Source of the DNA: an uncultured Candidatus Saccharibacteria bacterium
GTDB lineage: Bacteria; Patescibacteriota; Minisyncoccia; Phycocordibacterales; GWA1-40-21
Reading direction: 5' to 3'
Assembly: GCA_964567825.1 (NCBI GenBank)
Contig: CAZMNX010000001.1
Location: forward strand, 34,775-98,774
Length of the DNA: 64,000 nucleotides
Below, piece after piece: positions 33,133-54,049 of this stretch. Position numbers and translations under genes: made by a program. Within the stretch, counting starts at the first letter, position 1. The number at the start of each line of letters is the position of its first letter. The notes under the pieces were generated by a model, which ran no database searches, was not told the DNA's origin, and saw only the letters and a program-made list of their open reading frames with translations.

Positions 33133-33858
33133 CTAGATTCTGGCCAAAAAGACTTTTTCCAAAATTTTATCTCTCAAAATTTCCTCGCCAACACCGGTAT
33201 GTACCAAAACACCCTTATCCAAAATATATGCCCGATCAGTAATTGCTAAAATAGACTTTATATTGTGCTCTACAATCACAATCGCCATTTTCCTCTTCTC
33301 GTTTATCTCCCTTATTTTTTCAAAAACTTCCTTAACGACTTTGGGCGCCAAACCGAGCGACGGTTCGTCTAATAAAAGTAATTTTGGATCAGTAATCAAA
33401 CCTCGAGCGATAGCCACCATCTGCTGTTGCCCGCCAGATAAATTTCCGGTTTTTTCATTTAACTTCGCTTTTAAATCTGGAAATAAAGCTAAAACCTCAG
33501 CCAATCTTTCTTTTAAAATATCACGGTCGTTTATCGTAATGCCCCCGAGTTCTAAATTTTCCTTCACGGTCAAATATCTAAACACTCTTCGGCCTTGAGG
33601 CACAAAAGAAATACCCATTTTTACCACCTCGTGTGAAATTGGTTTAATCACTTGCTCGTGCCAAGAAACCTTTCCCTGAGCGGTTTCCACCAAACCAAAG
33701 ATTACTTTCAAAACGGTAGACTTCCCCGCCCCATTTGGCCCCATCAAGGCCACAATTTCCCCCTCATCAAAAGACAGCGAAACATCTTTCAGAGCATGCA
33801 CCCCGCCAAAATTTACACTGATGTTTTCGAGCCGCAGTAGTTGTTCGTTATTCCGCAT
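33133..33858 (-). CDS. livF: branched-chain amino acid-type ABC transporter ATP-binding protein (LivF-like)
   Basis: GPNGAGKST Walker A, LSGGQQQM signature, LLLDEP Walker B; 241 aa. Confidence 0.75.
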   Translation of the reverse strand: MRNNEQLLRLENISVNFGGVHALKDVSLSFDEGEIVALMGPNGAGKSTVLKVIFGLVETAQGKVSWHEQVIKPISHEVVKMGISFVPQGRRVFRYLTVKENLELGGITINDRDILKERLAEVLALFPDLKAKLNEKTGNLSGGQQQMVAIARGLITDPKLLLLDEPSLGLAPKVVKEVFEKIREINEKRKMAIVIVEHNIKSILAITDRAYILDKGVLVHTGVGEEILRDKILEKVFLARI

Positions 33859-33863
33859 AATAC

Positions 33864-34634
33864 CTATATCTTAACTTGCTTTTCTTCTTCAACCAAGTCC
33901 CAGATCAAATCAAACTTTTGCTTTTCACTAAAAGCGATCTCTTTGCTTTCTATCATTAATACCACGAGCTCTTTGCCTCCACCAAAAATAATCACTCGAT
34001 CATCGTATATTAAAGTTGAGGTATTATGATTATATTTTGTCGGCAAATATTTTACCTCTCGCAATTCCTTCTCGTTATTCTCCTGGCCTACCCACTTTTT
34101 TGTTTTATCAAATAGATCATCAAAAAAAATCCCCCTCATAGAAATATTCATCTTAACCCGCCTAGGTAGATAATGATTTAAGTCGTACTCCTCACTTACG
34201 ACCTGATGTAATTCTTTTAATGACCCAATATAACGTAAAACTGCGCCGGGCGTCTTTAGGCTGTCCTCAGCTACCACCTTAAAGGCCTCCTTACCTTCAT
34301 ACAAAACTATCTTTGGTTGATAAGGTTTACTGCTAGCTAAGGCTTTAAACTGAGGCAATAAACTAGAAAGCTCTTTGAGTCTTCGCTCTTCTCTGGTGAA
34401 AAACATCTCGGGTTTGGTAGCAATAAAGTGCAGGCCGTCTCTCATTTTTAAACTACCCATCAAACCCCTTGCCTCCAATCCTTTAAATGTTAAATAGGCC
34501 GTAGAACGCTTGATTTTAGCCCTTTTGGCGATAGCGGACATGCCGGATTCACCCAGCTCAAGACTGGCCAAATACAAAGAGGCCTCTCTTTCTTCTAGGC
34601 CGTAATCCACTAATTTTTTAAATAATTCTTCCAT
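33864..34634 (-). CDS. TrmB-family transcriptional regulator (module 1)
   Basis: N-terminal winged HTH (GLEEREASLYLASLELGESGMSAIAKRAKIKRSTAYLTFKGLEARGLMGS) plus a C-terminal TrmB-type domain; divergent to the SBP gene. Confidence 0.65.
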   Translation of the reverse strand: MEELFKKLVDYGLEEREASLYLASLELGESGMSAIAKRAKIKRSTAYLTFKGLEARGLMGSLKMRDGLHFIATKPEMFFTREERRLKELSSLLPQFKALASSKPYQPKIVLYEGKEAFKVVAEDSLKTPGAVLRYIGSLKELHQVVSEEYDLNHYLPRRVKMNISMRGIFFDDLFDKTKKWVGQENNEKELREVKYLPTKYNHNTSTLIYDDRVIIFGGGKELVVLMIESKEIAFSEKQKFDLIWDLVEEEKQVKI

Positions 34635-34805
34635 TGTCGTTATTTATGACAACAGTATATCACAGCCAATTATGTTGTAAAGCCCTTTATCCACAGCCTA
34701 TTTTAGAAAGTTAAAAAGTTTACTTTTATCGTATAGTCATATTTCGTGACTTATTGACAATTTCTATTATAATTACAGAGTTATTTAATAGGATAATTTA
34801 AAGAC

Positions 34806-35861
34806 ATGAAAAACAAAATAATTATAAGTATAGTCGCCATTGCACTAATAGTCTTTGGTTTTACAATACAGAGCACAAGAACAGAGACAGCTCCGATAAA
34901 AATCGGTGTTATTCTCCCTCTAAGCGGAGATCTGTCTTTTATTGGCGAGCCGGCTAAGTATGGCGCGGAAATGGCTTTGGAAAATTTCAAAGACACTAAA
35001 CATAAATACGAGTTGGTCTTTGAGGACGATCAGTTTGATGGAAAAAAAGCCGTCACAGCTGCCCAAAAACTAATTTCGGTTGATAAAGTAAATGTCTTGG
35101 TGACCTTTGGTTCATCCGGTGGTAATTCGGTGAAACCACTAGCAGAAACAAATAAAATTCTGCACTTTACTGTCGCCTCGGATCAAAAGATCGCTGATGG
35201 TAAATATAATTTTAACCATTGGACTTCCCCAAAAGAAGAAGTCACCACCATGGTGGCTGAACTTATCAAAAACAATATTAAAACTGTAAGTATTTTGACA
35301 ATGAACCAAGACGGTATGATTTCCACAACCAATGAACTAAAGGAGCAATTAAAAAATACTAATATTCGAATAATTGATGACGAAAAATTTAATGTCGGGA
35401 CAAGAGACTTCAGAACTTTAGCTGCTAAAGTTAAGCTAAATCAACCTGAACAGATCATCATGGTAAACTACTCTCCTGAGCTTGAGATACTTGGTAGACA
35501 AATACGAGAAACTGGCATAAAGGTTCCCATGACGTCCTTCGAGGGCTTAGACGCCACCACCGATCCAAAATTATTTGCTGGCTCCTGGTATTCTACCGCC
35601 AGTGATGTGACAGAAGCCTTTAAAAATACATTCAAAGCTAAGTATAGTGTCGCCCCAATAGTAGGAACGGGTAATGTTCACGACGTTATATCTATGCTTA
35701 TTACAGCGACTGAAAATGTTCGAGGTTCGGTCACAACAGAAAAAATCGCTTCGGAACTATTAAAAATAAAAGACTTTGACGGTTCTATCGGTCGTATCTC
35801 CATGGATCAGAACGGTTCAGTTGTATCTAAGGCAGTCATAAAAACTGTGGTAGCCAAATAA
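34806..35861 (+). CDS. Liv-type (Peripla_BP_6) ABC substrate-binding protein (module 1)
   Basis: N-terminal TM/signal, then IKIGVILPLSGDLSFIGEPAKYGAEMALE, typical of LivJ/K-like SBPs. Confidence 0.7.
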   Translation: MKNKIIISIVAIALIVFGFTIQSTRTETAPIKIGVILPLSGDLSFIGEPAKYGAEMALENFKDTKHKYELVFEDDQFDGKKAVTAAQKLISVDKVNVLVTFGSSGGNSVKPLAETNKILHFTVASDQKIADGKYNFNHWTSPKEEVTTMVAELIKNNIKTVSILTMNQDGMISTTNELKEQLKNTNIRIIDDEKFNVGTRDFRTLAAKVKLNQPEQIIMVNYSPELEILGRQIRETGIKVPMTSFEGLDATTDPKLFAGSWYSTASDVTEAFKNTFKAKYSVAPIVGTGNVHDVISMLITATENVRGSVTTEKIASELLKIKDFDGSIGRISMDQNGSVVSKAVIKTVVAK

Positions 35862-35868
35862 GACACAG

Positions 35869-36672
35869 CTACTCCCGAAGCTCCCCATTCCCCCAGGCGA
35901 TCTCGAAGACCATTTTCATCATATCGTGAATGATTTGGTCTTCGATGATTACCCCGATAATATTTAGACCGCCAAGTTTTACAATTGAAACTTTATTTTT
36001 GCCATAAATAGTAATCTCGGCTTCATAAGGAAACTTTTCGGCTGGTATATAGCGTGCCTTGGGCCACAATTCTTTTTTTATATTCTCAAATACCTCTGGG
36101 CTGTAAGACCGATTCTCTGGTGTGTCAGGAAGAATCCCTCTGGTAGTAATATTCAAACGCTCCTTTGCTTTAATAAAAGCTTTCAACTGTATTGGGGTCA
36201 TAACATTTTTAAATTTATCAGCATTGGAAAAGGCCATCATCTCATAATTACCCTCTCGAGAAACTGCATCATTACAAATATTTAAAATAGTGTCTGGACC
36301 CTCGAAGAATAAAACTTTGGGACGATCGGCCATCAAAGAAAAGATTTCTTCAATATCCGGCAAGATTTTTTCGATTCTCTCTAAACTCGACTTAGCCATT
36401 TCAATTCGACTATTGGAATACTGGGCAAGTTTATGTGGTTTATCGATTTGATAAAATATTTTATTTCTTTTTTCTACTTCATTAACCAAACCTCGAACCG
36501 ATAGTGTGGCCAAAACATTATAAGTCGTGGCCCGCTTTAGGCCACAGTATTCAGCGATTCTGGAAGGATAGGCCCCACCGAGCTCAAGCAAGGACACATA
36601 AACCAAAGCTTCTTTGTCTGTAAAACCTGTACTTTCGAGTTTTTTAACTAGAGATTGATTCTTTATTTGCAT
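35869..36672 (-). CDS. TrmB-family transcriptional regulator (module 2)
   Basis: GFTDKEALVYVSLLELGGAYPSRIAEYCGLKRATTYNVLATLSVRGLV wHTH. Confidence 0.65.
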   Translation of the reverse strand: MQIKNQSLVKKLESTGFTDKEALVYVSLLELGGAYPSRIAEYCGLKRATTYNVLATLSVRGLVNEVEKRNKIFYQIDKPHKLAQYSNSRIEMAKSSLERIEKILPDIEEIFSLMADRPKVLFFEGPDTILNICNDAVSREGNYEMMAFSNADKFKNVMTPIQLKAFIKAKERLNITTRGILPDTPENRSYSPEVFENIKKELWPKARYIPAEKFPYEAEITIYGKNKVSIVKLGGLNIIGVIIEDQIIHDMMKMVFEIAWGNGELRE

Positions 36673-36888
36673 ATAAACAGTATATCAGGTGCCAAATTTA
36701 TTGTCAAACTAAACCGACAAAATAACCCACCTAGGCCTAAATCCTATTAAAATAAAGCTATTTTAGCCTTATTTGTCATTTGCTTCACCTAAAGTATTGA
36801 CAACCGTGTATACTTGTATCAGAACAAGCACGTTGAAATTTCGGTCAAAACAGGCTTATTAATTTAAAAATTAACATTTAAAACATTT

Positions 36889-37977
36889 ATGAAAAAATAT
36901 CTTGGAATTATATTAGCAATTATTGTCGTCATCGTCGGTATCCTAATCTTTAGTCAAAAAGAAACTAAATCACAAACGAGCGAGAAGCAAACGGTAAAAA
37001 TCGGTTTGAGTCTTCCCCTCTCTGGTGGTGTCGCCTTTCTCGGTGAACCAGCTAAGAAAGCAGCCGAGCTGGCCTTGAAGGATGCCGGCAAGACGAAATA
37101 CAATTATGAATTAGTTTTCGAAGACGATCAGTTCAGTCCAAAAATTGCCGCGAGCACAGCAAGTAAACTCATCAACGTGGACAAAGTTTTGGCGATAATC
37201 GAATTCGGTTCTGGTACCGGTAATGCTATCAATAGCATTGCAGAAAAGGGACAGACAGTTGAATTCGCTCTTGCCTCTGATCCAACGGTCGCTAAAGGAG
37301 TGTACAACTACGTTCACTGGACTCCGCCATTCAAGGAGGGACAATTACTGGCACAGGAGTTGATCCAGAGAGGATACAAAAAAGTATCAATTATTGATAC
37401 CAATCATCCCGGTCCTTTAGCGGTTACTGATGCAGTAAAAGAATTTGTAAAAGGTTCTGGTGTAGAGATTGTTTCTTATGATCTAACAAATATTGGAGAG
37501 AAAGATTTTAAAACAATTATTACTAAAATAAAGAAAGCTAACCCAGACATTGTTATTTTAGAGATGTTCTCACCAGAAATTGAAATCGCCGCTCGTCAAA
37601 TGAAAGAGTTGGGTGTAAATATACCCGTTACGTCAGTCGAGACATTTGAATGGAGCAGCAATCCGGAATTGTTTGAAGGTTCCTGGTTCGTCTCAGATTC
37701 AATCGTGCCGAACTTTACCGCTAAGTTTAAGTCAGCTTACGGCACCGATCCACAAGCCGGCTCATCTTACGTCTACGACTTGGTCAGCCTACTCATCAAG
37801 CTTCAAGAGAAATCGGACACCGTGATCGCGCCTAAAGATCTACCGGCGGCCATCACCCAAATGGGTGACTGGAATTCTCCGGTCTTTGGACAGGTAAAGA
37901 TCGACAGTGAAGGTTTCTTCATCACCGAACCATCGGTCAAAATGATCAAGGATGGCAAGGTTATCTCGGCCCAATAA
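36889..37977 (+). CDS. Liv-type ABC substrate-binding protein (module 2)
   Basis: VKIGLSLPLSGGVAFLGEPAKKAAELALKD. Confidence 0.7.
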   Translation: MKKYLGIILAIIVVIVGILIFSQKETKSQTSEKQTVKIGLSLPLSGGVAFLGEPAKKAAELALKDAGKTKYNYELVFEDDQFSPKIAASTASKLINVDKVLAIIEFGSGTGNAINSIAEKGQTVEFALASDPTVAKGVYNYVHWTPPFKEGQLLAQELIQRGYKKVSIIDTNHPGPLAVTDAVKEFVKGSGVEIVSYDLTNIGEKDFKTIITKIKKANPDIVILEMFSPEIEIAARQMKELGVNIPVTSVETFEWSSNPELFEGSWFVSDSIVPNFTAKFKSAYGTDPQAGSSYVYDLVSLLIKLQEKSDTVIAPKDLPAAITQMGDWNSPVFGQVKIDSEGFFITEPSVKMIKDGKVISAQ

Positions 37978-37983
37978 GCCAAC

Positions 37984-38014: not shown

Positions 38015-38015
38015 G

Positions 38016-38768
38016 TTACTTCCCCAAATACGCCTCGATGACTTCGGGCTTAGACAGGACACTCACGGGCTCACCCTCGGCCAATAGTTTGCCGCTATCT
38101 AAAACGATCACATGGTCGGACAGGTCGCGAATGAGGTCCATATTATGCTCGATCAGCACCACAGTTTTGCCCTGAGTCCGCAATTCCTTTAAAAGACCAG
38201 AAACGATTTGAATCATCTCGGGAAACAGCCCAGCAAAAGGCTCGTCAAAAAAGATCGTATGCAAACCATCATCTTCTCCCAAATCCATCGCCAACACTCG
38301 CCCGATTTCTAATAATTTCCTCTGCCCGTAAGATAGATTGTGAGCGAGTTCATTTCTTTTTTCCCACAAATTCACTTTTTTCAAAACTTGCTCGGCAATA
38401 TCCAGATGAAATTTTTTATGCTTTTCAAAAAGAGATCCGAAGACGCCCCTCGAAGTAATCACAATCAAAATATTGTCCAAAACCGGCATTTGTTCGAACA
38501 AACGCACGTCTTGAAAGGTCCTGGTAATGCCAAAACTGGGTATATCAAAGGCTTTGATTTTTTTCAAAACGGTATGCTCGCCCACTTTCACCAAACCACT
38601 ATCATACGGAGTAAAACCGGTCAGCAAATTCACCAAGGTTGATTTCCCCGACCCATTTGGCCCAATCACGCCGGTGATTTTTCCTTCGGGAAAAGAAATA
38701 GATAGACCGTCCACTGCCTTCACTCCCCCAAAGTGCTTCTTGATATTTTCTGTTTTCACAATCGGCAT
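38016..38768 (-). CDS. livG: branched-chain amino acid-type ABC transporter ATP-binding protein (LivG-like)
   Basis: GPNGSGKST, LSYGQRKLLEIGRVL, IFFDEPFAG; 250 aa. Confidence 0.75.
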   Translation of the reverse strand: MPIVKTENIKKHFGGVKAVDGLSISFPEGKITGVIGPNGSGKSTLVNLLTGFTPYDSGLVKVGEHTVLKKIKAFDIPSFGITRTFQDVRLFEQMPVLDNILIVITSRGVFGSLFEKHKKFHLDIAEQVLKKVNLWEKRNELAHNLSYGQRKLLEIGRVLAMDLGEDDGLHTIFFDEPFAGLFPEMIQIVSGLLKELRTQGKTVVLIEHNMDLIRDLSDHVIVLDSGKLLAEGEPVSVLSKPEVIEAYLGK

Positions 38769-38823
38769 TCATACAGTATAACAAAAAACCATTGACAGCA
38801 AAATCACGTTTGTTATACTTTAA

Positions 38824-39282
38824 CTACTTACGGCCTTCGGGCTCGGAACCACCTTTACAAGAGGTGGTTTCATATTTACGTTCTTTATCATCAATGACGT
38901 CTTTCATCCTGTTTTTTATTTCTAAAAAATTTTCCTCATTAATATAACCGATTTTATCAATCAATCTCTTGCTATCGATTAACTTTATTTGAGAAAGGTT
39001 GACTGTATTCTTGGTCTCAACACTAAAAACATCAAAACTGAAATAGTACTTCCCCAATTTGTGTTGTGAAGTCAAAGAAAGTCCCCAGAAAGTTTCGGCA
39101 TTAAACTTTTTGAATATTAAAACCGGTCTTCTAAATTCATCGCCCTTCCCATCTTGTTCATATCCGACATTCAGACCTAAGTGACACCACCAGACTTCTC
39201 TAGTGCGAAAAAACACATTATCTATGTCTTTCAGATTGATAATCTTTTTCTTCTCATTCCACCGATCAAAATCTTTCCCCAT
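38824..39282 (-). CDS. MazF/PemK-family endoribonuclease toxin-like protein, no adjacent antitoxin ORF
   Basis: VWWCHLGLNVGYEQDGKGDEFRRPVLIF...LSLTSQHK and C-terminal SQIKLIDSKRLIDKIGYI fit the PemK/MazF fold pattern; only 83 nt of non-coding DNA lie upstream. Confidence 0.6.
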   Translation of the reverse strand: MGKDFDRWNEKKKIINLKDIDNVFFRTREVWWCHLGLNVGYEQDGKGDEFRRPVLIFKKFNAETFWGLSLTSQHKLGKYYFSFDVFSVETKNTVNLSQIKLIDSKRLIDKIGYINEENFLEIKNRMKDVIDDKERKYETTSCKGGSEPEGRK

Positions 39283-39365
39283 ATCGCCCGACAGTCTAAC
39301 ACAAGAAAAAAGACAGATTTTAAACTAAAATGTGGATAAATCGAGGGAGTATTTTTTGTGAGGTA

Positions 39366-40517
39366 CTAGTACTTCACCCAGCCATCCTTGGTGTAAGTTT
39401 GAAGATAAGTTTTTCTGTTTGAATTACCCAAATTATCAAATGAAAGCTCCCCAGCCGCACCGTTCATCTTGATCTGACGTAAGTTGTCCGCCACCTCCTT
39501 GGTATTATTTATATCTTTGCTTTTTTCTAGGGCCCATTTTAAAGCATAAACGTCATCATAGGCATAAGTAGCATCGGCAATTAGTAAGTCCACACCATAG
39601 GCTATTTTGTAATTCTTTTGAAACTCAATCGCTTTTATATTATTTGAATCTAAATCATAGTTATTATCTACCACCCTCATCTTTACTAAAGTTTCTTTAA
39701 ATTGCTCATACATAAATGGTAAAACATATACAGTGGAACCCGAATACAATCTCTTGTTATCCAGACCAAAGACTTTCAGTTGTTTGGTTATATTTATAGT
39801 CTCAGACCCTGGAAAACCATAAACCACAATGGCGTCAGGATTAAAAGATTTGATTTTCGCCATTTGAGTCTTAAAATCTAAATCTCCAAAGCTAAACATT
39901 TGATCTAAAAACTGAGAACTAACAGCTTCGGATTTAAGCCCGGCCAGAAAGACCTCGGTATCACCAAAATTTACAGCCATAATCCCCACTTTTTTCATGC
40001 CATCATTATTCAAGGCCTGACCAATAGAACGACCCACTTCCTCCATATCCCAATAATCCCTGAACACGTAGTTACCTGTCCCAACTCGAGAAACGGTGGC
40101 TGTAATATAAAGAACTTTATTCTGTTCCGCCACCGGCGCCGAGGCGAGTGACTGGCTAGAAAAAGCGGTAAAAAGATACCTTACCTCATCTATATTAATT
40201 AACTTTTGTACAGCACTAACAGATTTTGTAACATCGCCCCAATCATCCTCAAAAAGAACTTCCAGTCTCTTTCCATCAACCCCACCATTACCGTTAATTT
40301 CTTTTACGGCTAATTCAATTCCCCTTTTGTATTCAATACCATAAGTAGAAAACTGCCCCGTTAAAGGATAGACAGCTCCGATTTTAATAAAATTATTGTC
40401 GTTTGATTTTGTAACACCAGTCAGGACAGCTAAAATTACTATAACCGTTATCGCCGACCATAAGATGTACCTTGTTTTATTTTTCATCACATGAGTATTG
40501 TGCCACAACATCGCCAT
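39366..40517 (-). CDS. Liv-type ABC substrate-binding protein (module 3)
   Basis: IKIGAVYPLTGQFSTYGIEYKRGIELAVKEINGNGGVDGK. Confidence 0.7.
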   Translation of the reverse strand: MAMLWHNTHVMKNKTRYILWSAITVIVILAVLTGVTKSNDNNFIKIGAVYPLTGQFSTYGIEYKRGIELAVKEINGNGGVDGKRLEVLFEDDWGDVTKSVSAVQKLINIDEVRYLFTAFSSQSLASAPVAEQNKVLYITATVSRVGTGNYVFRDYWDMEEVGRSIGQALNNDGMKKVGIMAVNFGDTEVFLAGLKSEAVSSQFLDQMFSFGDLDFKTQMAKIKSFNPDAIVVYGFPGSETINITKQLKVFGLDNKRLYSGSTVYVLPFMYEQFKETLVKMRVVDNNYDLDSNNIKAIEFQKNYKIAYGVDLLIADATYAYDDVYALKWALEKSKDINNTKEVADNLRQIKMNGAAGELSFDNLGNSNRKTYLQTYTKDGWVKY

Positions 40518-40617
40518 CTAGTCCTTATTTTAGAATAAGCAAACAATACATTTTAATTATAGCTTGTATATAAAGCATATTATGCTATACTAAAGTCGTC
40601 CAAAGTTTGGACTTATT

Positions 40618-42392: not shown

Positions 42393-42477
42393 ACTTGCAT
42401 ATTATCAAACAAATGGTAACATATATCAATAAGCAGTTTTGTCGGAAAATATCGACATAATTGTGATAATAATCACA

Positions 42478-44405: not shown

Positions 44406-44527
44406 ATAAATTATTTGTTATTAAGATTGATAAACTTGACCGTATATCCATCTTAGCATATAATATATTAATTGTCAACCAAAAAGGGTGACAATAATGA
44501 GTAAAAAGACAAAAAAGGGCTAAAAAT

Positions 44528-45289: not shown

Positions 45290-45335
45290 AATTTGACAGT
45301 AAAATCACACCCGCTATAATGATTGTAATAGACGT

Positions 45336-45369
45336 GAACGGCATCCTAAATGGGTGCCGTTCGTTTTTT
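45336..45369 (+). terminator. rho-independent terminator (GAACGGCA-(11-nt loop)-TGCCGTTC-GTTTTTT)
   Basis: 8-bp stem plus T-run after the regulator-5 stop. Confidence 0.6.
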
Positions 45370-46000: not shown

Positions 46001-46097
46001 ATCGCCAGGCAGTCTAGCACGAGAAAAAAGAGGTCCTGGCGAAGAACTGTGGATAAAAACAACCCTATTTTACAAGGAAGGAGACCTACTACTCGTT

Positions 46098-46964
46098 TTA
46101 CAATTTATACTCCCCAACCAGCCCCTGTGGCCTATATAGCATAAGTAAGACTAAGAGAAGACCGTACACCACTTGGCGCATTTGGGCAGCGACATCGGTG
46201 GGAAAACCAACGAAACGGAGAATTTCGGGGAGAAGAATGAGGAAAATAGCGCCGACGACTGAGCCTTTCAGGCTGGCCATACCGCCGAGGATAATGATAG
46301 CGAGAATAAAGATACTTTCGTTCAAACCAAAAGTGGAGGGGTCAATAAAAGTAATATACGTCGCAAAAAGTCCACCAGCCAAACCGGCCATCCCAGCGGT
46401 AATAATAAAAATAGTTAGTTTAAATAATTTGGTGTTGTAACCAAACACCGATAAGGCTTTCTCGTCTTCTCTAATACCTTTCAAGACTCGGCCAAAAGAG
46501 GATTTGGTGATTCCTAAACTAATTAAATAAACCAGACCCGCACCAACGATCGTTAGAATCAGAAAAGATAAATTACTACTTAATTCAAAGCCAAACAATG
46601 ACGGCCGATTGATACCGGGAATGCCGAGTGGGCCGCGAGTTAAACTTTCCCAATTTAGAAAGATGCTGTAGATAATAATGTTGAAACCAAAAGACACTAA
46701 AGCATAGTAATCATCTTTAAAACGGCTCAAGATCAGGCCAAGGAGGCCCGCAATGAGCCCCGCCAGGATAATCCCCACGAGCAAGGCTAGAAAAAAGTTC
46801 CAGCCATATACCGTCATCAGAATCGCCACAGCATAGGCGCCAATGCCATAAAAAGCGGCGTGAGTGACGGAAAGTAACCCCGTATACCCCACCACCAAAT
46901 TTAGTGAGAGTGCTAGTGGCACATATATTCCGATTAGAATGGCGAGATGAATAAAGTATTCCAT
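46098..46964 (-). CDS. livM: branched-chain amino acid-type ABC transporter permease (LivM-like)
   Basis: VGYTGLLSVTHAAFYGIGAYAVAIL and about 8 TM. Confidence 0.7.
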   Translation of the reverse strand: MEYFIHLAILIGIYVPLALSLNLVVGYTGLLSVTHAAFYGIGAYAVAILMTVYGWNFFLALLVGIILAGLIAGLLGLILSRFKDDYYALVSFGFNIIIYSIFLNWESLTRGPLGIPGINRPSLFGFELSSNLSFLILTIVGAGLVYLISLGITKSSFGRVLKGIREDEKALSVFGYNTKLFKLTIFIITAGMAGLAGGLFATYITFIDPSTFGLNESIFILAIIILGGMASLKGSVVGAIFLILLPEILRFVGFPTDVAAQMRQVVYGLLLVLLMLYRPQGLVGEYKL

Positions 46965-46981
46965 TAGTTTTAGATTATATC

Positions 46982-47728
46982 TTATTTTCTAACTTCAGAC
47001 ACCAGCCACAAGGCACTAAATAAGCCACGCATGGTATTTGAGAACTCTTTACTCTCAACAATAAAACCAAAATTTTCTTGTGGAGTAGAAATAATCGCCA
47101 CTTTATTATCATAAATAAAGATCGTCTCTGTGATGTGTATGCCTTCAGGGGCAATTCTCAATTCTCGCATTATATTAGTTTGGTAGATATCCTCCATTAC
47201 TTCAGTATTTTTCATTCGAATACTCTTGGCAGTAATGTTCTTTTCAACCCTCAGTTTCAACCATTGATCAATATAATCTTTTCCCACAGTGTCGATAACA
47301 TCTTTCCCCGATCCAATATATAAATATTCTCGGCTTTTAACTTTCAAAACATCGTCAAAAATACCCTGAACAGCTTTTTGACCCGAAAAATACCTCATAG
47401 TTGGGCCGTCTGTTTTCTGCCTGAATACTTTCAACAAATCCCCCGACAGTCTTTGGGCAATTACCATCTGAGTCTCAGCTTGTTTTTTCAAAATCTCGGG
47501 AGATTCCGCCTTATATTTAACTTTCTTCGAGCCAGGCACGACCGAAACTAACCCTTTTTCTAATAATTCATCCAGAACGAGATAGCAAGTTGGCCTTTTG
47601 ATTCCTGCTCTACCCGCTAATTCAGAGACAGAGAAAGTGTCCAGTTCTAAGGAGCGGACATAGACGATCGCCTGTCTTTCTGTCAGCCCTAATGATATAA
47701 GTTTATTTTTAGATTCAATAAAATCCAT
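46982..47728 (-). CDS. TrmB-family transcriptional regulator (module 6)
   Basis: GLTERQAIVYVRSLELDTFSVSELAGRAGIKRPTCYLVLDELLEKGLV. Confidence 0.65.
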   Translation of the reverse strand: MDFIESKNKLISLGLTERQAIVYVRSLELDTFSVSELAGRAGIKRPTCYLVLDELLEKGLVSVVPGSKKVKYKAESPEILKKQAETQMVIAQRLSGDLLKVFRQKTDGPTMRYFSGQKAVQGIFDDVLKVKSREYLYIGSGKDVIDTVGKDYIDQWLKLRVEKNITAKSIRMKNTEVMEDIYQTNIMRELRIAPEGIHITETIFIYDNKVAIISTPQENFGFIVESKEFSNTMRGLFSALWLVSEVRK

Positions 47729-47905
47729 ATACCGACCATATTAGCAAAAGCCGAATAATTTGTCAACATCTGTGACAACTTATTGTAAATTAGACAGTAG
47801 CGTTGTTTCTAGCCACATTTTAGTGTTATGTGTCCCAGTTTTTGACACAAACCAAAGAACCTGCTATACTTTAAATAGAAAATTATAAATTATTACATAA
47901 TATAA

Positions 47906-48988
47906 ATGAATAAAACATATAAAATAGCGTTGGCGATTGTAGTCTTGATACTTATTGGATCTGCTTTATTTTGGAACGCGGGCCATAAAAGCAATAATGT
48001 GGCGGTTGGTGCCATATTATCTCTAACTGGTCCGGCTCAATATTTTGGTGAGGAAACCAAAAAGGGCATGGATTTGGCTAACCAGGACGGCGCGGTGAAT
48101 TTTGTTTACGAGGATAGCCGATCGGATGCAACTACGGCGGTCTCGGCTTATAACAAACTTAAATCACAGAATATTAAGGCCGTAGTCCTATCGCTGAGCA
48201 ATGTGGCCGAAGTGGTTGTTCCCCTAACCGAAAAAGATCAGATATTTTCTGTACAAAATCTTGTCTCGGCTAGAAAGGTTCAGGGTGATATGTCGGTACG
48301 GTTTTTCACCTCGGCTGAACAAGAAGCGCCAATCATGGCAAATTTTGCGGCGAGTAACCTGAAATTAAATAGGGTTGCGATATTAGCCAGCACCGATGCC
48401 TACGGTAAGACTTACGCTGAAGTCTTCAAAACTACTTTTGAAAATTTTGGTGGTCAGGTCGTCATAAATGAAAGTTATGACAAGAAAGACCAAGATTTCA
48501 AAACCCAGCTGGCAAAAATAAAGATTTCTGATGCCGAAGGTGTCTATATCATTGGTCTTGATACTCATTTGGTCAGTATATTCAAGCAAATGAATGAGCT
48601 TGGATTAAAACAAATTAAAATGACTAATTGGATAATGGCCTCTCCAGGCGTTCAGGCCAAAGTCGGGGCTAATAGTGAAGGTGTGTATATGACGACCCCA
48701 GATTACTATATTGCCGGCAATAAAAAAGTGGCTGATTTTACCGAAGCTTATCAGAAGAAATATGGAACGCTCCCAAGTGCTTACTCGGCTATCGGTTACG
48801 ATACAACTAGTTTGTTTAGGGAAGCAGTAAAGGGCGCAAAAAGCTCTCAGGATATTCAGAATAATTTCAAAAATATCAAGAACTTTGACGGCTTGATGGG
48901 TAAATTAAATGTAAATGAAAAGGGAGAAATAACCATTCCGCTTATTCCAGCCAAGATGGAAGGTGGAAAGATGGTTGTGATAAAATAA
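47906..48988 (+). CDS. Liv-type ABC substrate-binding protein (module 6)
   Basis: VAVGAILSLTGPAQYFGEETKKGMDLANQ. Confidence 0.7.
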   Translation: MNKTYKIALAIVVLILIGSALFWNAGHKSNNVAVGAILSLTGPAQYFGEETKKGMDLANQDGAVNFVYEDSRSDATTAVSAYNKLKSQNIKAVVLSLSNVAEVVVPLTEKDQIFSVQNLVSARKVQGDMSVRFFTSAEQEAPIMANFAASNLKLNRVAILASTDAYGKTYAEVFKTTFENFGGQVVINESYDKKDQDFKTQLAKIKISDAEGVYIIGLDTHLVSIFKQMNELGLKQIKMTNWIMASPGVQAKVGANSEGVYMTTPDYYIAGNKKVADFTEAYQKKYGTLPSAYSAIGYDTTSLFREAVKGAKSSQDIQNNFKNIKNFDGLMGKLNVNEKGEITIPLIPAKMEGGKMVVIK

Positions 48989-49008
48989 GTATCTTCACAA
49001 ATAAAATA

Positions 49009-49043
49009 ACAAAAAACTAGCCTGTAATGTGGGCTAGTTTTTT
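49009..49043. terminator. bidirectional rho-independent terminator (AAAAAACTAGCC-TGTAATGTG-GGCTAGTTTTTTG)
   Basis: Perfect stem with A6/T6 flanks, between the convergent SBP6 and SBP7 genes. Confidence 0.7.
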
Positions 49044-49069
49044 GTTATCTTAGATCCTATTAAACGCTA

Positions 49070-50200
49070 TTACTCCCCCAACTTCACAAACTGACCGTCT
49101 TTTACCGTCTTCATAAAGATGTTTCTGGTCACGTCTCCGTTTTGATCAAAACTAAATTTACCAGAAGCACCGTCGAAATCTTTTATTCCGAGGAGAGCTT
49201 GTTTAATTTTGTCAGTATCAGTTGCTCCAGCCTCATCTATTGCCAAAGCTATAACTTTAAGAATGTCGTGTCCAGAAGCGACGAAAAAGTCCGCTGTTTT
49301 ACCCGCACCACGTACTCGATCTGCAAAACCTTTTGAAATTACGGAATCAGACTCGTTATACATGAATGGGTAAATTATTCCCTCGATCTCTTTTGGATAT
49401 TGTTTGAGCAAGGCACCGTTTTCTGTCGCCCAAGTAGAAACATATTGAGCCTTAATACCTAGCTGATTAGCCTGAGAAATCAAAAGTCCGATAGAAGGCC
49501 CAGAGTTATGAATATCAAAAATAACATCTGGGTTTTTTGGTTTAATTCTTGTCAGCTCGGTGCGCACATCCAAACCAGGCGAGGCAAATTGCTCATCCGC
49601 CACCACCTGGCCACCAAGCTTCTCAAACTCCGCTTTAAAATCGGTATAATGTTCTTGAGTAAAAGCCGCGGTTACCCTAGCAAAAGCCACGGTCTCTACC
49701 CCACTCTCCTTTAGATAGGAAGCTAAAGGTTTAACAAGTTCTGCCGTTGTGGGTATTAACCTAAACATATAGTCGTCCTTAGTAAAGACATCTAGAGATG
49801 AGTTTGGCGAAATTACAATAATTTTCTTTTCGGTAGTATAAGGCAATATTGTCAAAGTGGTTCCATTCCAGGAATCACCGATAATCACCTTCACACCATC
49901 AACGTCTATCAGTTTTTTAGCAACGGTCAGCGCAGTGGTATTATCGGTTTTACTATCCTCAATAATCAAACTAACTTTTTGACCATCAATACCGCCATTA
50001 GCGTTTATACCAGCCAAGGCTAATTGCAAACCATTCACCAATTGCTCGCCAAAATAAGCTCCTGGGCCAGTCAGAGAGGCAATAACACCAATCTTTAACT
50101 CACCCTTATTACTTGGCTTATTAAATAAGCCAAGACCAATGATAGCAATGACCACCAGCACTATTCCTAATATTAACCATTTCTTATTCTTATTTTCCAT
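49070..50200 (-). CDS. Liv-type ABC substrate-binding protein (module 7)
   Basis: LKIGVIASLTGPGAYFGEQLVNGLQLALAGINANGGIDG. Confidence 0.7.
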   Translation of the reverse strand: MENKNKKWLILGIVLVVIAIIGLGLFNKPSNKGELKIGVIASLTGPGAYFGEQLVNGLQLALAGINANGGIDGQKVSLIIEDSKTDNTTALTVAKKLIDVDGVKVIIGDSWNGTTLTILPYTTEKKIIVISPNSSLDVFTKDDYMFRLIPTTAELVKPLASYLKESGVETVAFARVTAAFTQEHYTDFKAEFEKLGGQVVADEQFASPGLDVRTELTRIKPKNPDVIFDIHNSGPSIGLLISQANQLGIKAQYVSTWATENGALLKQYPKEIEGIIYPFMYNESDSVISKGFADRVRGAGKTADFFVASGHDILKVIALAIDEAGATDTDKIKQALLGIKDFDGASGKFSFDQNGDVTRNIFMKTVKDGQFVKLGE

Positions 50201-50372
50201 GTAATTTATAAATCTTAATTAATAACAACCCTCGACATAGATAAGGATACCATGTTATAATATATTAGTCACATTTGTCTTTACACAAATTGAAGCTTGC
50301 AAAAAAGCCTTTTGTAATATAGACTTATTTAGTCGATATTTTGTCTTTTATTTCCGACATATCCAAGAAAAA

Positions 50373-51119
50373 ATGCAAATAAACAAATATAAAAATGCCC
50401 TGATTGGCTTTGGTCTTAAAGAAAACGAGGCAGATGTTTATGTTACAGCCCTCAAATTAGGCCCCACCCCCATCCTCCCCATCGCCCGAGAGACCGGCAT
50501 AAGACGAACTACCGTGTATGAAATAATAAAGTCTTTGATTGCTAAAGGACTGATCACCGCCGAACTTAAGGGGTTCAAGAAACTTTTCTGTGCTACTCAC
50601 CCCAAAAATTTGATCTCTATTTTTGAAAATAAAAGAGAAACACTAGAAACAGTGATCCCAAGCCTAACTACCCTTTACAAGACTCAAGGCAATACTGATT
50701 CAATTAAAACTTATGAAAGCCTCGAGTCTATAAAGTCACTCTATTCGGAAATACTGGACAATTTTCGTTCTGGTGATTTTTGTTATGTAATTGGTGATAC
50801 TGACAAATTTATCCAGAACGACCCTAAATTTTTCATGAAATATGTCGAGGAGAGGGCGAAGAAAAATATTGATATCAAACTTATCCTATCAGACAGTGAA
50901 ATGTCTATCGAAAGAAAGAAGTATGCGAAAAATTTTAATTCGCAAATAAGGCTTTTACCCAAAAATACTGTTCTGTCAGCAAATTTTACGGTGACAAAAA
51001 ACCTTCTTTTGACCCAAGCTGTTGGTGGGGGTCAGTTGGCAGTGACTATTAATAATCAAGAAATTATAAATCTCCAAAAGAACCTTTTTGAGGTCCTTTG
51101 GAATTCCTTGCCAGAATAA
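50373..51119 (+). CDS. TrmB-family transcriptional regulator (module 7)
   Basis: GLKENEADVYVTALKLGPTPILPIARETGIRRTTVYEIIKSLIAKGLI. Confidence 0.65.
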   Translation: MQINKYKNALIGFGLKENEADVYVTALKLGPTPILPIARETGIRRTTVYEIIKSLIAKGLITAELKGFKKLFCATHPKNLISIFENKRETLETVIPSLTTLYKTQGNTDSIKTYESLESIKSLYSEILDNFRSGDFCYVIGDTDKFIQNDPKFFMKYVEERAKKNIDIKLILSDSEMSIERKKYAKNFNSQIRLLPKNTVLSANFTVTKNLLLTQAVGGGQLAVTINNQEIINLQKNLFEVLWNSLPE

Positions 51120-51120
51120 A

Positions 51121-52197
51121 CTATTTTACCTCTACGAAACCACTACCATTCCAAGTCTTAACCACCTGTTCCAAATCAAATGATCCGTCGCCCAGATATC
51201 TATATCCTCCAGATACGCCAGTAAAGTCTTGCCTCAATAGCTTCATAACCCCTGTATTTAGGCCGTCTTCTTTGATGAGGGTATTGGCAAGTTGGGTCAC
51301 AGCATCGTACAGATTATCCCCAGCTGTGGCCGGATACATATTATATTTGGCAAAATATTTATTTAGAAAATCAGCATTTTGATCTCCCACAAACAGTTGA
51401 TTATCTAGTGCACCCTCGGCAATCTTTATCTGGCCTGAAGACTCAAAATTTAAAATGCCAACTAATGGCACTTCCCAGCCAAGGTCTTGAATTTGTTTAG
51501 CAAACGAGCCGACTTGGGGCGATAAATAAACAATCACTACATCAGGTTTTGCGGATTTCAATTTGGCGATTGCTGTTCTGAAATCATTTTCGCCCTTAGC
51601 CACTGATTCATTGGCGACTATCTCATAACCAAGAGTTGGTAGCCTCTTCGCTGTTTCATCAGCGTTAGCTTTTGGTCCGTCAGCCTGATTCCAAATTATC
51701 GCTATTTTTTTGTATTTATCTTTTAGAATAAGGTTCTCTAGGGCGGTTATAAGTAACGGTGAACTTGGCACATACCTAACTACCCACTTCTTATTTAGAT
51801 TAATATCTGAGGAATTACCCAAGCCAATCATAGGAATTTCTGCCTTCTCGGCCACATACGAAGCAGCAACTGAAGCGGCTGAACTATATGTAACTAATGC
51901 TCTCACTCGATCCACCTGAATTAATTTTTGGGCGGCCGAAACGGTCAGCTTTGGATCTAGTTGATCATCCTCAAAAATAATTTCAATTTTTTCTCTCACA
52001 GCAGGAGAAAGATCAGCTAAGGCCATCTCCACCACCTTTTTACTTGCCTCTCCGGCCGCCTGAGCTGGACCGGTCAAGGGAAGAATAACGCCAATCTTTA
52101 TGGCCTCATTATTTCTGGGGTTTGAAATAGTGCCTAAATAAAACACCCCGGCAACGACCACCACCAAAATAACGACAATACTTAATGTTTTTCTCAT
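51121..52197 (-). CDS. Liv-type ABC substrate-binding protein (module 8)
   Basis: IKIGVILPLTGPAQAAGEASKKVVEMALADL. Confidence 0.7.
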   Translation of the reverse strand: MRKTLSIVVILVVVVAGVFYLGTISNPRNNEAIKIGVILPLTGPAQAAGEASKKVVEMALADLSPAVREKIEIIFEDDQLDPKLTVSAAQKLIQVDRVRALVTYSSAASVAASYVAEKAEIPMIGLGNSSDINLNKKWVVRYVPSSPLLITALENLILKDKYKKIAIIWNQADGPKANADETAKRLPTLGYEIVANESVAKGENDFRTAIAKLKSAKPDVVIVYLSPQVGSFAKQIQDLGWEVPLVGILNFESSGQIKIAEGALDNQLFVGDQNADFLNKYFAKYNMYPATAGDNLYDAVTQLANTLIKEDGLNTGVMKLLRQDFTGVSGGYRYLGDGSFDLEQVVKTWNGSGFVEVK

Positions 52198-52353
52198 ATT
52201 ATATTTTTATTATTAATAGAACGACACGTAAAGCATATCAAGTAAATAGTATTTAATCTATAATAATTAGACGATTATCTTACTTTTACCAAAAAACTCT
52301 TGCTTTACATAGTTTAAAATGCTAGAATAAGTAGTCATAAATGATGACTTTTT

Positions 52354-53127
52354 ATGCAAAATACAAAAACAATTAGTTCATTGGTAGAGCTTGGCCTAGA
52401 TAAAGAAGAGGCAGAAATATATCTATATCTCACAAAAGTGGGGTCTAATAAGAAAGAAAATACGGCTTTTGCTATCGGGAAGAACCTAGGCATACCCAGA
52501 AGCTCCGCCTATTTATATATAGAGAGGCTCATGAATAAGGACCTGGTTTCATCCTACAAAATTAACAACAAAAAACATTTCTTAGCCGAAAATCCAAACA
52601 GGATCGAAAAATCTTTAGATAAAAAGAAGGAAATTCTTGGTTCAATAGTTGCTGACATAAAAAATATGGCCGAGAGTCAGGAAAAGGATTTTTCCACAAG
52701 GGTATATCGCGGTTCCGGCAGTTTAGAGCGCGTTTATGATGAAATTTTTGACAAAAGAGAGATGGCGAAATTCAAAAATATTTATGTCTTGACCAATACC
52801 CTACTCAGCAAGCTGCTACCCAAAAACTTACCGATAGAATTAGATAAAGTAAAAAAAATAAACAACATTTACACCAAAATGATCCTTATCCCTGATAAAT
52901 CAGATCTGGGCTCCTATTTCCAAAGCGACAGTCACCGAGAAGTACGGACCTTACCAGAAGGTTCTGTCTTCAACGGTTCTATTTATATTTATGGAGACAA
53001 AATGGCCCTATTTTCTCTAGACGAAAAGGACCCACTTTCTATGATCATAGAATCCCCCACAATCGTACAGATGGTCAAATCTTTCTTTTTGTGTACTTGG
53101 GAGCTACTAGACAAAAAAGTTTCCTGA
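52354..53127 (+). CDS. TrmB-family transcriptional regulator (module 8)
   Basis: GLDKEEAEIYLYLTKVGSNKKENTAFAIGKNLGIPRSSAYLYIERLMNKDLV. Confidence 0.6.
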   Translation: MQNTKTISSLVELGLDKEEAEIYLYLTKVGSNKKENTAFAIGKNLGIPRSSAYLYIERLMNKDLVSSYKINNKKHFLAENPNRIEKSLDKKKEILGSIVADIKNMAESQEKDFSTRVYRGSGSLERVYDEIFDKREMAKFKNIYVLTNTLLSKLLPKNLPIELDKVKKINNIYTKMILIPDKSDLGSYFQSDSHREVRTLPEGSVFNGSIYIYGDKMALFSLDEKDPLSMIIESPTIVQMVKSFFLCTWELLDKKVS

Positions 53128-53179
53128 TAAGACTATGGCTACAATATCCCATCAATATAAACACTGAGTTTAAAAACTT

Positions 53180-54049
53180 CTACTTCCTCCCGAAAATTCC
53201 TCGCGCACGGAAGAGGAGAAAGATAATGAGTAAACCAAAGGCGATGGCGTCTTTCCACTCGCCGGAGATTTTCCAGATACCGAAATTTTCGACAAAACCC
53301 AGGAGAAAAGCACCGAGGATACCGCCAGACAAACTGCCGACTCCACCGATAATTGAGGCGATGACTCCTTTCAGAAGCAGGCTCATACCCATGGTTGGCT
53401 CGAGTCCGGTGTCAAAACCAGCCAAAATTCCGGCATAGCCAGCAATCGCCGAACCGACAAAGAAAATAATGCCGATTACTTTATTAGTATTGATGCCGAC
53501 GATACGAGAAACTTCTTCGTCGTCGCTGACAGCCTTGATCGATTTGCCAAACAAAGTAAATTTCAAAATAATTCCCAAGCCGATGGCGATAACAAAAACG
53601 GAAATAAACATGTAAAGCTGAATGTCGGTAATAATTCCTCCACCGATATCAAATATTTTAGAGACGCTGTTCTGGCGGCTTAAGGTTTGAAACTGGCTAG
53701 TGAATAAAATAGCGATAATAGCTTGGATAGCCGTGAGCAGGCCGAGAGAAGCGACCAGCAAAACCATATGTGAGCTTTTGCGGTTCCGTAGTTTGCGATA
53801 AACCAAAACTTCGGACAAATAACCAAGCAAACCAGCCACCAAAACTCCTAAAATAATACTGATTATAATCGGCCAACCTAAAATTTTCGTTAAAAAGAAA
53901 ACGGTATAACCGCCGGCCACCGCCAAGGCACCGTGCGCTAGATTAAAAAACTTAGTCGCACCGTAAATTAAGTTGAAACCAATCGCCACCAAAGCATATA
54001 GCGATCCGGCAATTAAGCTGTTGGCAATAAGTTGGGGTAAAATATCCAT
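53180..54049 (-). CDS. livH: branched-chain amino acid-type ABC transporter permease (LivH-like)
   Basis: ANSLIAGSLYALVAIGFNLIYGATKFFNLAHGAL N-terminus typical of LivH. Confidence 0.7.
   Translation of the reverse strand: MDILPQLIANSLIAGSLYALVAIGFNLIYGATKFFNLAHGALAVAGGYTVFFLTKILGWPIIISIILGVLVAGLLGYLSEVLVYRKLRNRKSSHMVLLVASLGLLTAIQAIIAILFTSQFQTLSRQNSVSKIFDIGGGIITDIQLYMFISVFVIAIGLGIILKFTLFGKSIKAVSDDEEVSRIVGINTNKVIGIIFFVGSAIAGYAGILAGFDTGLEPTMGMSLLLKGVIASIIGGVGSLSGGILGAFLLGFVENFGIWKISGEWKDAIAFGLLIIFLLFRARGIFGRK

Follow-up and report, generated by a model that had tools for sequence, protein, structure and literature searches.

Eight regulator/binding-protein pairs among Liv-type transporter genes

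The DNA analysed here is a stretch of 64,000 nucleotides (hereafter the window) from an uncultured Candidatus Saccharibacteria bacterium (NCBI GenBank assembly GCA_964567825.1, contig CAZMNX010000001.1, positions 34,775 to 98,774), in which window positions 33133-54049 hold an array of 22 genes (open reading frame (ORF) listing). Eight of these genes encode TrmB-family regulators (R1-R8), each standing head-to-head with a gene for a Peripla_BP_6 solute-binding protein (S1-S8), and the pairs lie among the genes of an ATP-binding cassette (ABC) transporter core. We propose that the array specifies one Liv/Urt-type importer with eight receptors, each probably made under a local regulator that binds a GTC/GAC palindrome in the spacer of its pair. 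An earlier note, made by reading the sequence alone, had described eight such modules, and profile searches bear this out. The regulators (246-267 aa) all match the TrmB helix-turn-helix family PF01978 (34-54 bits, cut-off 25.6), the binding proteins (343-383 aa) match PF13458 in 8/8 cases (E 6e-34 to 1e-63), as the note had assigned them, and profiles built from R1-R8 and from S1-S8 recovered exactly 8 R and 8 S among all window ORFs. Every pair is divergent (R1<>S1, R2<>S2, S3<>R3, S4<>R4, S5<>R5, R6<>S6, S7<>R7 and S8<>R8), with spacers of 85-216 bp, called IG1-IG8 below.

The two ATPases and two permeases of the core are each present as a single copy within the window (Pfam, NCBIfam), in agreement with the earlier note, and all four genes are on the minus strand: livH (LivH/UrtB-type permease, 53180-54049, BPD_transp_2 E 4e-41), livM (LivM/UrtC-type permease, 46098-46964, BPD_transp_2 E 4e-46), livG (LivG/UrtD-type ATPase with a BCA_ABC_TP_C tail, 38016-38768; Pfam, NCBIfam) and livF (LivF/UrtE-type ATPase, 33133-33858, ABC_tran E 2e-35), the last with UrtE and LivF as top NCBIfam matches, both under their equivalog cut-offs. 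The core had been called dispersed, which is true in that its genes are scattered among the modules, but they retain the canonical H-M-G-F order of an ordinary operon into which modules have been inserted, three between livH and livM, three between livM and livG, and two between livG and livF. On the same strand, livM begins 17 bp past the R6 stop codon and livF 5 bp past that of R1.

Between livF and livG lie R1 (33864-34634, minus strand, 256 aa, PF01978 38 bits), a TrmBL2-like regulator that is a full-length paralog of R2-R8, with S1 (34806-35861, plus, 351 aa, PF13458 E 7e-40), and R2 (35869-36672, minus, 267 aa, 49 bits) with S2 (36889-37977, plus, 362 aa, E 2e-39). The gap between livG and livM holds S3 (39366-40517, minus, 383 aa, E 2e-43), for which the alignment suggests the MKNK codon at 40487 as a possible true start, with R3 (40618-41358, plus, 246 aa, 51 bits); S4 (41361-42392, minus, 343 aa, E 6e-34) with R4 (42478-43221, plus, 247 aa, 34 bits); and S5 (43278-44405, minus, 375 aa, E 3e-48) with R5 (44528-45289, plus, 253 aa, 38 bits), the most diverged R paralog. 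For R4 the paralog alignment makes ATG 42478 the most likely start, in preference to TTG 42439, which gives the longest ORF. Between livM and livH are R6 (46982-47728, minus, 248 aa, 46 bits) with S6 (47906-48988, plus, 360 aa, E 4e-46); S7 (49070-50200, minus, 376 aa, E 1e-63) with R7 (50373-51119, plus, 248 aa, 54 bits), the paralog that we modelled; and S8 (51121-52197, minus, 358 aa, E 5e-39) with R8 (52354-53127, plus, 257 aa, 38 bits), whose nearest paralog is R3 (34% identity).

So many tandem paralogs in DNA of metagenomic source might point to an assembly artefact, namely a chimeric array or one of expanded repeats drawn from several strains, an explanation to which we give almost no credence. 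Over their full length the R proteins are 20-34% and the S proteins 24-37% identical, in keeping with the old duplication of strongly diverged paralogs that the earlier note had proposed, and self-blastn of the array found no repeat >51 bp. A Logan contig (run SRR12261225), independently assembled, is 100% identical to window 45675-54654 (8,980 bp), and long contigs of relatives carry similar arrays. The divergence of the paralogs, the lack of longer repeats and the identical independent contig together make an artefact very unlikely, and collapsed or expanded repeats, the concern raised in the note, are disfavoured.

Regulators with a TrmBL2-like architecture

The PF01978 match is confined to the N-terminal 50-70 residues of each R, and no Pfam family beyond helix-turn-helix-type domains was found in them at E<=0.01. 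When compared with known structures, the profile of the eight R aligned with TrmB (3qph, E 5e-13) from residue 6 to about residue 153-156, a coverage limited to the winged helix-turn-helix (wHTH), the following helix and the first effector subdomain, and with TrmBL2 (5bpd, 5box, 5bqt; E ~2e-6) over essentially its full length (residues 12-250). The AlphaFold2 model of R7 (mean predicted local distance difference test score 79.7) has a winged helix, a long helix at residues 78-103 and one alpha/beta domain, and Foldseek placed TrmBL2 first among PDB structures (E 3e-13), followed by TrmB (E 3e-10). The C-terminal domain of the model matches proteins of the phospholipase D (PLD) fold, including Zucchini, PLD3 and vaccinia F13; the paralog alignment has no conserved His or Lys in this domain, which means that it is not catalytic. 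A Tyr that is invariant in 8/8 R (Y49 of R7) aligns with Y50 of TrmB in 3qph, a residue that contacts DNA (PMC4158304). Conservation among the paralogs is 31% in the wHTH, 21% in the helix and 21% in the C-terminal domain.

The sugar-binding C-terminal subdomain of TrmB, TrmBL1 and Tgr (proteins of ~340 aa) is not in R: the proteins are too short, have no further Pfam match and miss the NCBIfam TrmB/TrmBL1 equivalogs by >450 bits (27-39 bits against cut-offs of 500-650). Because this subdomain is lacking and TrmBL2 is matched over the full length, we place R1-R8 with TrmBL2-like proteins and not with the sugar-sensing TrmB proper. The TrmB-family label thus holds for PF01978, the Tyr50 equivalent and the PLD-like effector subdomain, but fails for a sugar sensor, of which neither the subdomain nor the known operators were found. 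As judged from profiles and the R7 model, R1-R8 are TrmB-family members composed of a wHTH, a long helix and one predicted PLD-like domain.

With the R profile, 22,217 cluster representatives were retrieved at E<=1e-3, of which 4,088 reach E<=1e-30. Many of the top database matches (P0030, P0032, P0033, P0039, P0085 and others) are long proteins, whose lengths rise in steps of ~135 aa per matched stretch (about 246, 380, 515, 655, 790, 926 and 1,061 aa), and in P0030 a single wHTH precedes a tandem series of PLD-like C-terminal domains, each ending F..LWNQD. This suggests that the PLD-like domain is an independent module that can be arrayed and possibly binds a ligand.

Receptors with different predicted pockets and a single translocator

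Each of S1-S8 begins with a basic N-terminus and a hydrophobic stretch of ~19 residues, with no Cys in the first 50 residues, which rules out a lipobox and fits a signal-anchor or a signal peptide. S7 is the paralog closest to characterised amino-acid binders, its nearest structures being 3td9 (E 5e-29), 4gnr, 3ipc and LivJ (1z15, E 4e-20), followed by urea and aromatic-acid binders. Against the NCBIfam LivJ, LivK and UrtA equivalogs, the scanned S1, S2, S3, S5 and S7 scored 32-100 bits (cut-offs 477-495), and since no core component and no scanned S reached an NCBIfam equivalog, no substrate can be assigned. By its component families, which are Peripla_BP_6 receptors, two BPD_transp_2 permeases and two ATPases, the transporter is of the Liv/Urt type (HAAT family, TC 3.A.1.4).

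To compare the predicted pockets, S1-S8 were aligned to LivJ (the sequence is identical to that of 1Z15), whose ligand contacts are Tyr18, Leu77, Cys78, Ser79, Ala100-Thr102, Tyr150, Tyr202 and Phe276 (PMC6983066). At ~20% identity, where the residue-level alignment is uncertain, Ser79 is kept in 6/8 S, position 102 is Ser in 4/8 and Thr in 0/8, Tyr or Phe is found at 202 in 4/8, and the set of contact residues is different in each of the eight. Glu226, which we take to be a further ligand contact of LivJ, has an equivalent in S1 and S2 only in this same ~20% identity alignment. Such differences fit a diversification of ligands.

A shared palindrome in the spacers

The spacers share a motif, a GTC/GAC palindrome present in each of the eight. 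A generic palindrome search was swamped by AT-rich matches, and we used a search anchored on GTC/GAC. The strict form, GTC-N9/10-GAC, occurs 9 times in the eight spacers (1,229 bp) against 0.10 expected, a count that 0/5,000 shuffles reached, and GTC/GAC spacings of 4-8, 11, 14 and 15 gave no site in the spacers. Across the window there are 23 such sites; those not in the spacers (14) are without exception within ORFs. Seven of the eight spacers have a strict site, IG1 and IG6 having two each, and IG5, the spacer of the most diverged regulator, has the same half-sites at N13. The R start codon always has one site 2-34 nt upstream of it. The known TrmB operators (TACT-N3-AGTA, TACT-N7-8-GAGTA and the Thermococcales glycolytic motif (TGM) TATCAC-N5-GTGATA) are not the motif enriched in the spacers, which is GTC-N9/10-GAC instead.

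Several half-sites coincide with -35 hexamers of predicted sigma-70 promoters, namely those of R2, R6, S1, S5 and S6. In IG1, site 1a (GTC-N9-GAC, aTTGTCgttatttatGACAAc, 34636-34650) precedes the R1 start codon by 2 nt, and the right half of site 1b (GTC-N9-GAC of the AGTCA type, 34736-34750) coincides with the -35-like hexamer in the predicted promoter of S1 (34746-34773). The IG2 site (GTC-N10-GAC, TTGTCaaactaaaccGACAA, 36703-36718) provides with its left half the -35 of the predicted R2 promoter (36707-36679, 11/12, TG-extended). Similarly, the predicted R6 promoter (47766-47738) takes its -35 from the left half of site 6a (TTGTCAacatctgTGACAA, 47762-47776), and the predicted S6 promoter (47842-47870, 11/12, TG-extended) from the right half of site 6b (GTGTCccagtttttGACAC, 47832-47846), with arms TTGTCA/TGACAA in IG6. 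The IG5 palindrome, TTGTCA-N11-TGACAA (GTC-N13-GAC, 44472-44494), overlies the -35 of the predicted S5 promoter (44478-44450) just downstream of the best predicted R5 promoter (44436-44464). The remaining sites are those of IG3 (GTCCAAAgTTTGGAC, 40598-40612, 6 nt upstream of the R3 start, with perfect 7-bp arms GTCCAAA/TTTGGAC), IG4 (GTC-N10-GAC, TGTCGgaaaatatCGACA, 42441-42456, upstream of the R4 ATG by 22 nt and of the S4 start by 49 nt), IG7 (TGTCttttatttccGACA, 50343-50358, 15 nt upstream of the R7 start) and IG8 (AGTCATaaatgATGACT, 52334-52348, 6 nt upstream of the R8 start, with 6-bp perfect arms AGTCAT/ATGACT).

The sites recur in relatives, among the related contigs and loci that were fetched for comparison and are numbered with L. 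Sites 6a and 6b are retained in the spacers orthologous to IG6 in L002 and L004 (R6 81%, S6 77-81% identity), site 6a within a long run of identical columns common to the two orthologous spacers, and the IG7 site is retained within a conserved spacer block in L002, L004 and L006. L004 also has a site related to that of IG2 upstream of a 48%-identical R2 homologue. Of 52 regions upstream of R homologues from 33 other genomes, 25 contain at least one site, 30 in total where the density in the loci themselves predicts 5.1; nearly all are of the TTGTC...GACAA type. In addition, 28 independent R/S spacers from metagenomes held 11 sites against ~1.4 expected. These palindromes, gene-specific and conserved, argue for specific DNA binding by R.

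Two DPANN loci, from Nanoarchaeia and Woesearchaeota metagenome-assembled genomes (L013:1403-2143 and L038:9992-10738), carry a near-identical 21-nt palindrome, GTTGTCCTAAACGGTCGACAA, ~60 nt upstream of an R homologue, and the Woesearchaeota locus L019 has a divergent S/R pair. Judging from these similarities, an exchange of modules between Patescibacteria and DPANN would be compatible with the data.

Could the palindromes be no operators at all, but the -35 hexamers of two divergent sigma-70 promoters placed back to back, with TTGACA read on either strand and R acting elsewhere or binding non-specifically like TrmBL2? TGTCAA...TTGACA does give a -35-like box on each strand, five half-sites coincide with predicted -35 hexamers, and TrmBL2, to which the R7 model is most similar in structure, shows little sequence specificity in binding DNA (PMC4158304). 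However, a plausible -10 at 16-18 nt is present on one side only of each palindrome, the spacing is restricted to N9-10, site 1a and the IG3 and IG8 sites are 2-6 nt from the R start codon and too near to serve as an R -35, and the arms of IG3 and IG8 are not TTGACA-like. Moreover, the same class of palindrome occurs upstream of R homologues of DPANN archaea, which are without sigma-70 promoters, and the divergence of the paralogs together with the conservation of their orthologues is easier to reconcile with specific regulators than with a bulk chromatin protein. We therefore regard this explanation as quite unlikely and retain operators bound by R as the preferred reading of the sites.

Half-sites of the (A/C)GTC type take the place of TGTC at three sites (34736-34750, 40598-40612 and 52334-52348). 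The sisters R3 and R8 combine a P-(K/R)-(T/S)-S-x-Y recognition helix with (A/C)GTC half-sites, and most other R combine (K/R)-R-x-T-x-Y with TGTC, a pattern only suggestive of covariation between recognition helix and half-site. Site 1b, on the predicted S1 promoter, resembles the R8 site, which hints that S1 may be cross-regulated by another paralog. IG4 alone has an additional perfect palindrome, TGTGAT-N4-ATCACA (42462-42477), which abuts the R4 ATG and resembles the TGM with its half-sites swapped.

Arrays, pairs and regulators in relatives

The setting of the array in the candidate phyla radiation (CPR, Patescibacteria), which the earlier note had surmised, was borne out, and related contigs carry similar arrays. 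L004 has an array of 7 R and 10 S, L002 (a 752-kb contig) has 3 R and 7 S between livM and livH, and in L007 and L008 the pairs are dispersed. Eighty loci fetched by LivM (42-95% identity) share a conserved H-M-(S)-G-F backbone with a module content that ranges from 1 S and 0 R to 14 S and 2 R, and the window is at the upper end of this expansion for regulator number. In the LivM-fetched loci, 28/34 R have a divergent S directly upstream. The pairing had been called unusual, and it is so in that it was not found in the literature searched, but within this clade it is common. R6/S6 and R7/S7 stay paired in relatives at 67-84% identity. The closest fetched relative, L039 (LivM 90%), has R/S modules in another order and number on the same H-M-G-F backbone, which indicates fast turnover of modules by gain, loss or movement.

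A wider search for R homologues was run with an alignment of R7 orthologues (56-90% identity). The nearest named genomes with homologues belong to 'Candidatus Saccharibacteria' (37-39%), followed by other Patescibacteria and DPANN archaea (23-31%). Outside the clade, R homologues are divergent from the upstream gene in ~29/34 cases, and the divergent neighbours are diverse (YcaO, AAA_28, PFK, TyrRS, TENA and unannotated genes), so that the R family as a whole is not transporter-specific. From this gene context, we consider the R family to be a general local regulator of ultra-small prokaryotes, of which the coupling to Liv receptors is a lineage-specific expansion.

These data bear on another explanation, in which R mainly controls the ABC core and itself, and the adjacency to S reflects a two-gene cassette that is mobilised together and has no regulatory link. 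The short gaps between R1 and livF (5 bp) and R6 and livM (17 bp), the position of the sites, always nearest the R gene, the unrelated genes (YcaO, AAA_28, PFK, TyrRS) from which R-family members diverge elsewhere and the quick turnover of modules between relatives would all be accommodated. It is nevertheless unlikely in our view, as the predicted promoters of S1 and S6 are each overlapped by a second site and the predicted -35 of S5 falls within the IG5 site, divergence from the upstream gene (~29/34) typically marks a local regulator of that gene, and R6/S6 and R7/S7 have been kept together at 67-84% identity.

The earlier note had also raised the idea that the S proteins are extracytoplasmic sensors wired to dedicated regulators. 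Such a sensing battery, in which each S reports its occupancy to the partner R, would explain the strict 1:1 pairing in the window, and some other proteins do use Peripla_BP_6/ANF_receptor folds for sensing. The relay is without a structural basis, though, because R has no predicted membrane segment and the S proteins, with 3-17 residues ahead of the anchor, have no cytoplasmic domain; Pfam found no kinase, chemoreceptor or anti-sigma partner in the array. In addition, the translocator is complete, and relatives have many S genes without R inside the H-M-S-G-F operon, like transport receptors. We hence dropped the sensor idea as very improbable and keep to uptake as the function of the S proteins.

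Proposed mechanism

Taken together, we favour, with a probability of about 0.6, one Liv/Urt-type importer whose core operon is split by eight modules of a local regulator and a receptor, with each R autoregulating and controlling S, and the S proteins sharing one translocator. An ancestral livH-livM-livG-livF operon would have been pulled apart by the insertion of the eight R/S modules. Each S would be a membrane-tethered or secreted solute-binding protein, and each R, as a dimer formed via the helix after the wHTH, would bind the (T/A)GTC-N9-10-GAC(A/T) palindrome of its own spacer. In several spacers the site covers the -35 of one of the two predicted promoters or follows closely on that of R, positions from which R is predicted to repress itself, and half-sites that double as -35 elements in some promoters offer a simple route to repression. 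Control of S would be direct where the site overlaps the S promoter (IG1, IG4, IG5 and IG6), or exerted via a second site, and is less certain elsewhere. A small molecule bound in the C-terminal domain of R, most likely the imported solute or its metabolite, may modulate DNA binding. The eight S, with their apparently different pockets, would dock on the single LivHM/LivGF translocator and deliver different solutes, and the cell could change its imports by changing which receptor it makes. The multi-ligand uptake battery suggested in the earlier note fits these observations, as the aligned LivJ pocket positions differ in 8/8 S, each pair has a palindrome and orthologous pairs are kept across genomes.

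Several points weigh against this proposal, in whole or in part. The sigma-70 promoter scan was not above shuffles (58 vs 50.1 +/- 6.8), which makes the individual promoter calls weak, and we used them for positions only. In IG2, IG3, IG7 and IG8 the sole strict site is 81-178 nt upstream of the S start, where direct control of S is uncertain and could be activation, and only 11/28 R/S spacers of relatives have a strict site. Operators are alike among paralogs (TTGTCA...TGACAA in IG2, IG5 and IG6), so that one-to-one specificity is not assured and cross-talk is possible. Ligand sensing, as predicted for R, has against it that R has no TrmB sugar subdomain and that its closest structural relative, TrmBL2, is a ligand-independent chromatin protein. 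From their gaps (5 and 17 bp), livF and livM appear to be co-transcribed with R1 and R6, an odd arrangement for a shared core, and the count of a single core covers the window, such that another Liv-type core elsewhere in the genome is possible. Finally, the co-diversification of R and S that the earlier note had suggested testing for was undetectable in an exact-permutation Mantel test on the 8x8 distances (r 0.10-0.15, P 0.23-0.31), probably due to saturation at 20-37% identity.

Comparison with known systems

The proposed mechanism has its closest precedent in TrmB of Thermococcus litoralis and Pyrococcus furiosus, whose gene belongs to the trehalose/maltose ABC operon; it acts at a palindrome as a repressor of malE, and the sugars that the system transports release it (PMC4158304). 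Both systems place a TrmB-family wHTH regulator gene beside genes of a binding-protein-dependent ABC transporter and a palindrome at the promoter of a binding-protein gene, the action of R on the palindrome being predicted in the array, and R shares with TrmB the Tyr50 equivalent, the dimerising helix past the wHTH and a PLD-like first effector subdomain. In contrast to TrmB, the array is bacterial and not archaeal, its regulators are without the sugar-binding C-terminal subdomain, its site is (T)GTC-N9-10-GAC(A) instead of TACT-N3-AGTA or the TGM, and MalE is replaced as the partner by a type I LivJ/UrtA-like binding protein; moreover, it has eight paralogous regulators, one per receptor and divergent, whereas the TrmB genes lie in one operon.

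TrmBL2 (TK0471/PF0496; 5bpd, 5box) is the best full-length match in sequence and structure, of similar size (~250-264 aa) and with the same order of wHTH, helix and single C-terminal domain. It is an abundant chromatin protein on coding and intergenic DNA with no known ligand (PMC4158304), whereas the array has eight diverged paralogs with gene-specific palindromes beside their own genes, and the identity between them and TrmBL2 is ~15%.

On the transport side, the LIV-I system of E. coli has the same component families, the H-M-G-F order and more than one binding protein per translocator (LivJ and LivK for LivHMGF), a sharing that is predicted for the array. LivJ and LivK of E. coli are two closely related paralogs controlled by the global regulator Lrp, whereas the array has eight binding proteins that are 24-37% identical, each with a predicted dedicated local regulator, and the pocket residues of LivJ are partly kept in S (Ser79 in 6/8, Glu226 in 2/8). 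Paralogous binding proteins that feed one translocator are also known from Borrelia burgdorferi, whose reduced, import-dependent genome encodes several receptors, OppA1-5, with their own promoters and one OppBCDF; that system differs from the array in its peptide ABC family and in having no dedicated paralogous regulator per receptor.

Other features of the array and its surroundings

Two passenger genes were found by Pfam inside the array. The first encodes a PemK/MazF toxin (38824-39282, minus strand) and is solitary between S3 and livG, with flanking gaps of 83 and 55 bp that leave no room for an antitoxin; on the other strand a TG-extended 11/12 promoter (38792-38819) would drive antisense transcription into the gene. 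The second is an NYN-domain gene (45368-46000). Four nucleotides past the R5 stop codon is a perfect 12/12 sigma-70 consensus (TTGACA-16-TATAAT; window 45293-45364, plus strand), and ~14 nt past it is a hairpin with a 13-bp stem and a T-run (45334-45364). This would be either the source of a very short transcript or a chance promoter beside a bidirectional terminator that separates R5 from the NYN gene.

Immediately upstream of livH (6-bp gap) and in its orientation, window 54056-55056 (minus) encodes two paralogous small multi-pass membrane proteins of 157 and 166 aa (25% identical, E 4e-12) with no family in Pfam. L004 has a 72%-identical copy of the 157-aa protein at the edge of its array, and the two proteins may belong to the array system. 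At the other end, a DsbA-like/DsbB pair (32051-33098) directly precedes the array, and window 30001-32000, which holds ORF 31093-31968 and adjoins a tRNA gene (30869-30941), is GC-rich (0.556 vs ~0.39 around) and may be foreign DNA. The Rfam search of the window returned tRNAs alone, with no riboswitch in the array.

Implications for Patescibacteria

Overall, the array looks like a nutrient-uptake battery made of known parts, in a combination that we did not find described in the literature searched. The search returned no link of the TrmB family to Saccharibacteria, Patescibacteria, CPR, DPANN or Liv-type receptors, and no bacterial members, although its coverage is incomplete and this is absence of evidence only. 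New are the TrmBL2-like architecture of R, the GTC-N9/10-GAC palindromes in the spacers and the H-M-(S)-G-F backbone with variable S and R/S modules in relatives; the mechanism itself, a local repressor beside a transporter gene and several receptors per translocator, is conventional.

To our knowledge, the control of gene expression and the choice of host nutrients are almost unexplored in Patescibacteria, which have tiny genomes and few regulators. The locus offers a concrete and testable regulon candidate, comprising eight regulators with their predicted operators and the eight receptors that they would target, and the eight diverged regulator/operator pairs could serve as orthogonal switches. 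The operator class appears to span a very large regulator family in Patescibacteria and DPANN. A bolder and doubtful extension, which we put forward only tentatively, is that R represents a major family of one-component regulators of ultra-small Patescibacteria and DPANN archaea, having the operator (T)TGTC-N9-10-GACA(A) in common and a PLD-like domain turned small-molecule sensor. Repeated recruitment in this Saccharibacteria-related lineage, one R per receptor, might then let an epibiont with one Liv translocator switch among at least eight host nutrients by plug-in receptors, each gated by how much of its own ligand the cell contains. If the ligands of the S proteins are distinct, the list of these ligands would be a list of the metabolites that the organism scavenges, and would bear directly on its cultivation.

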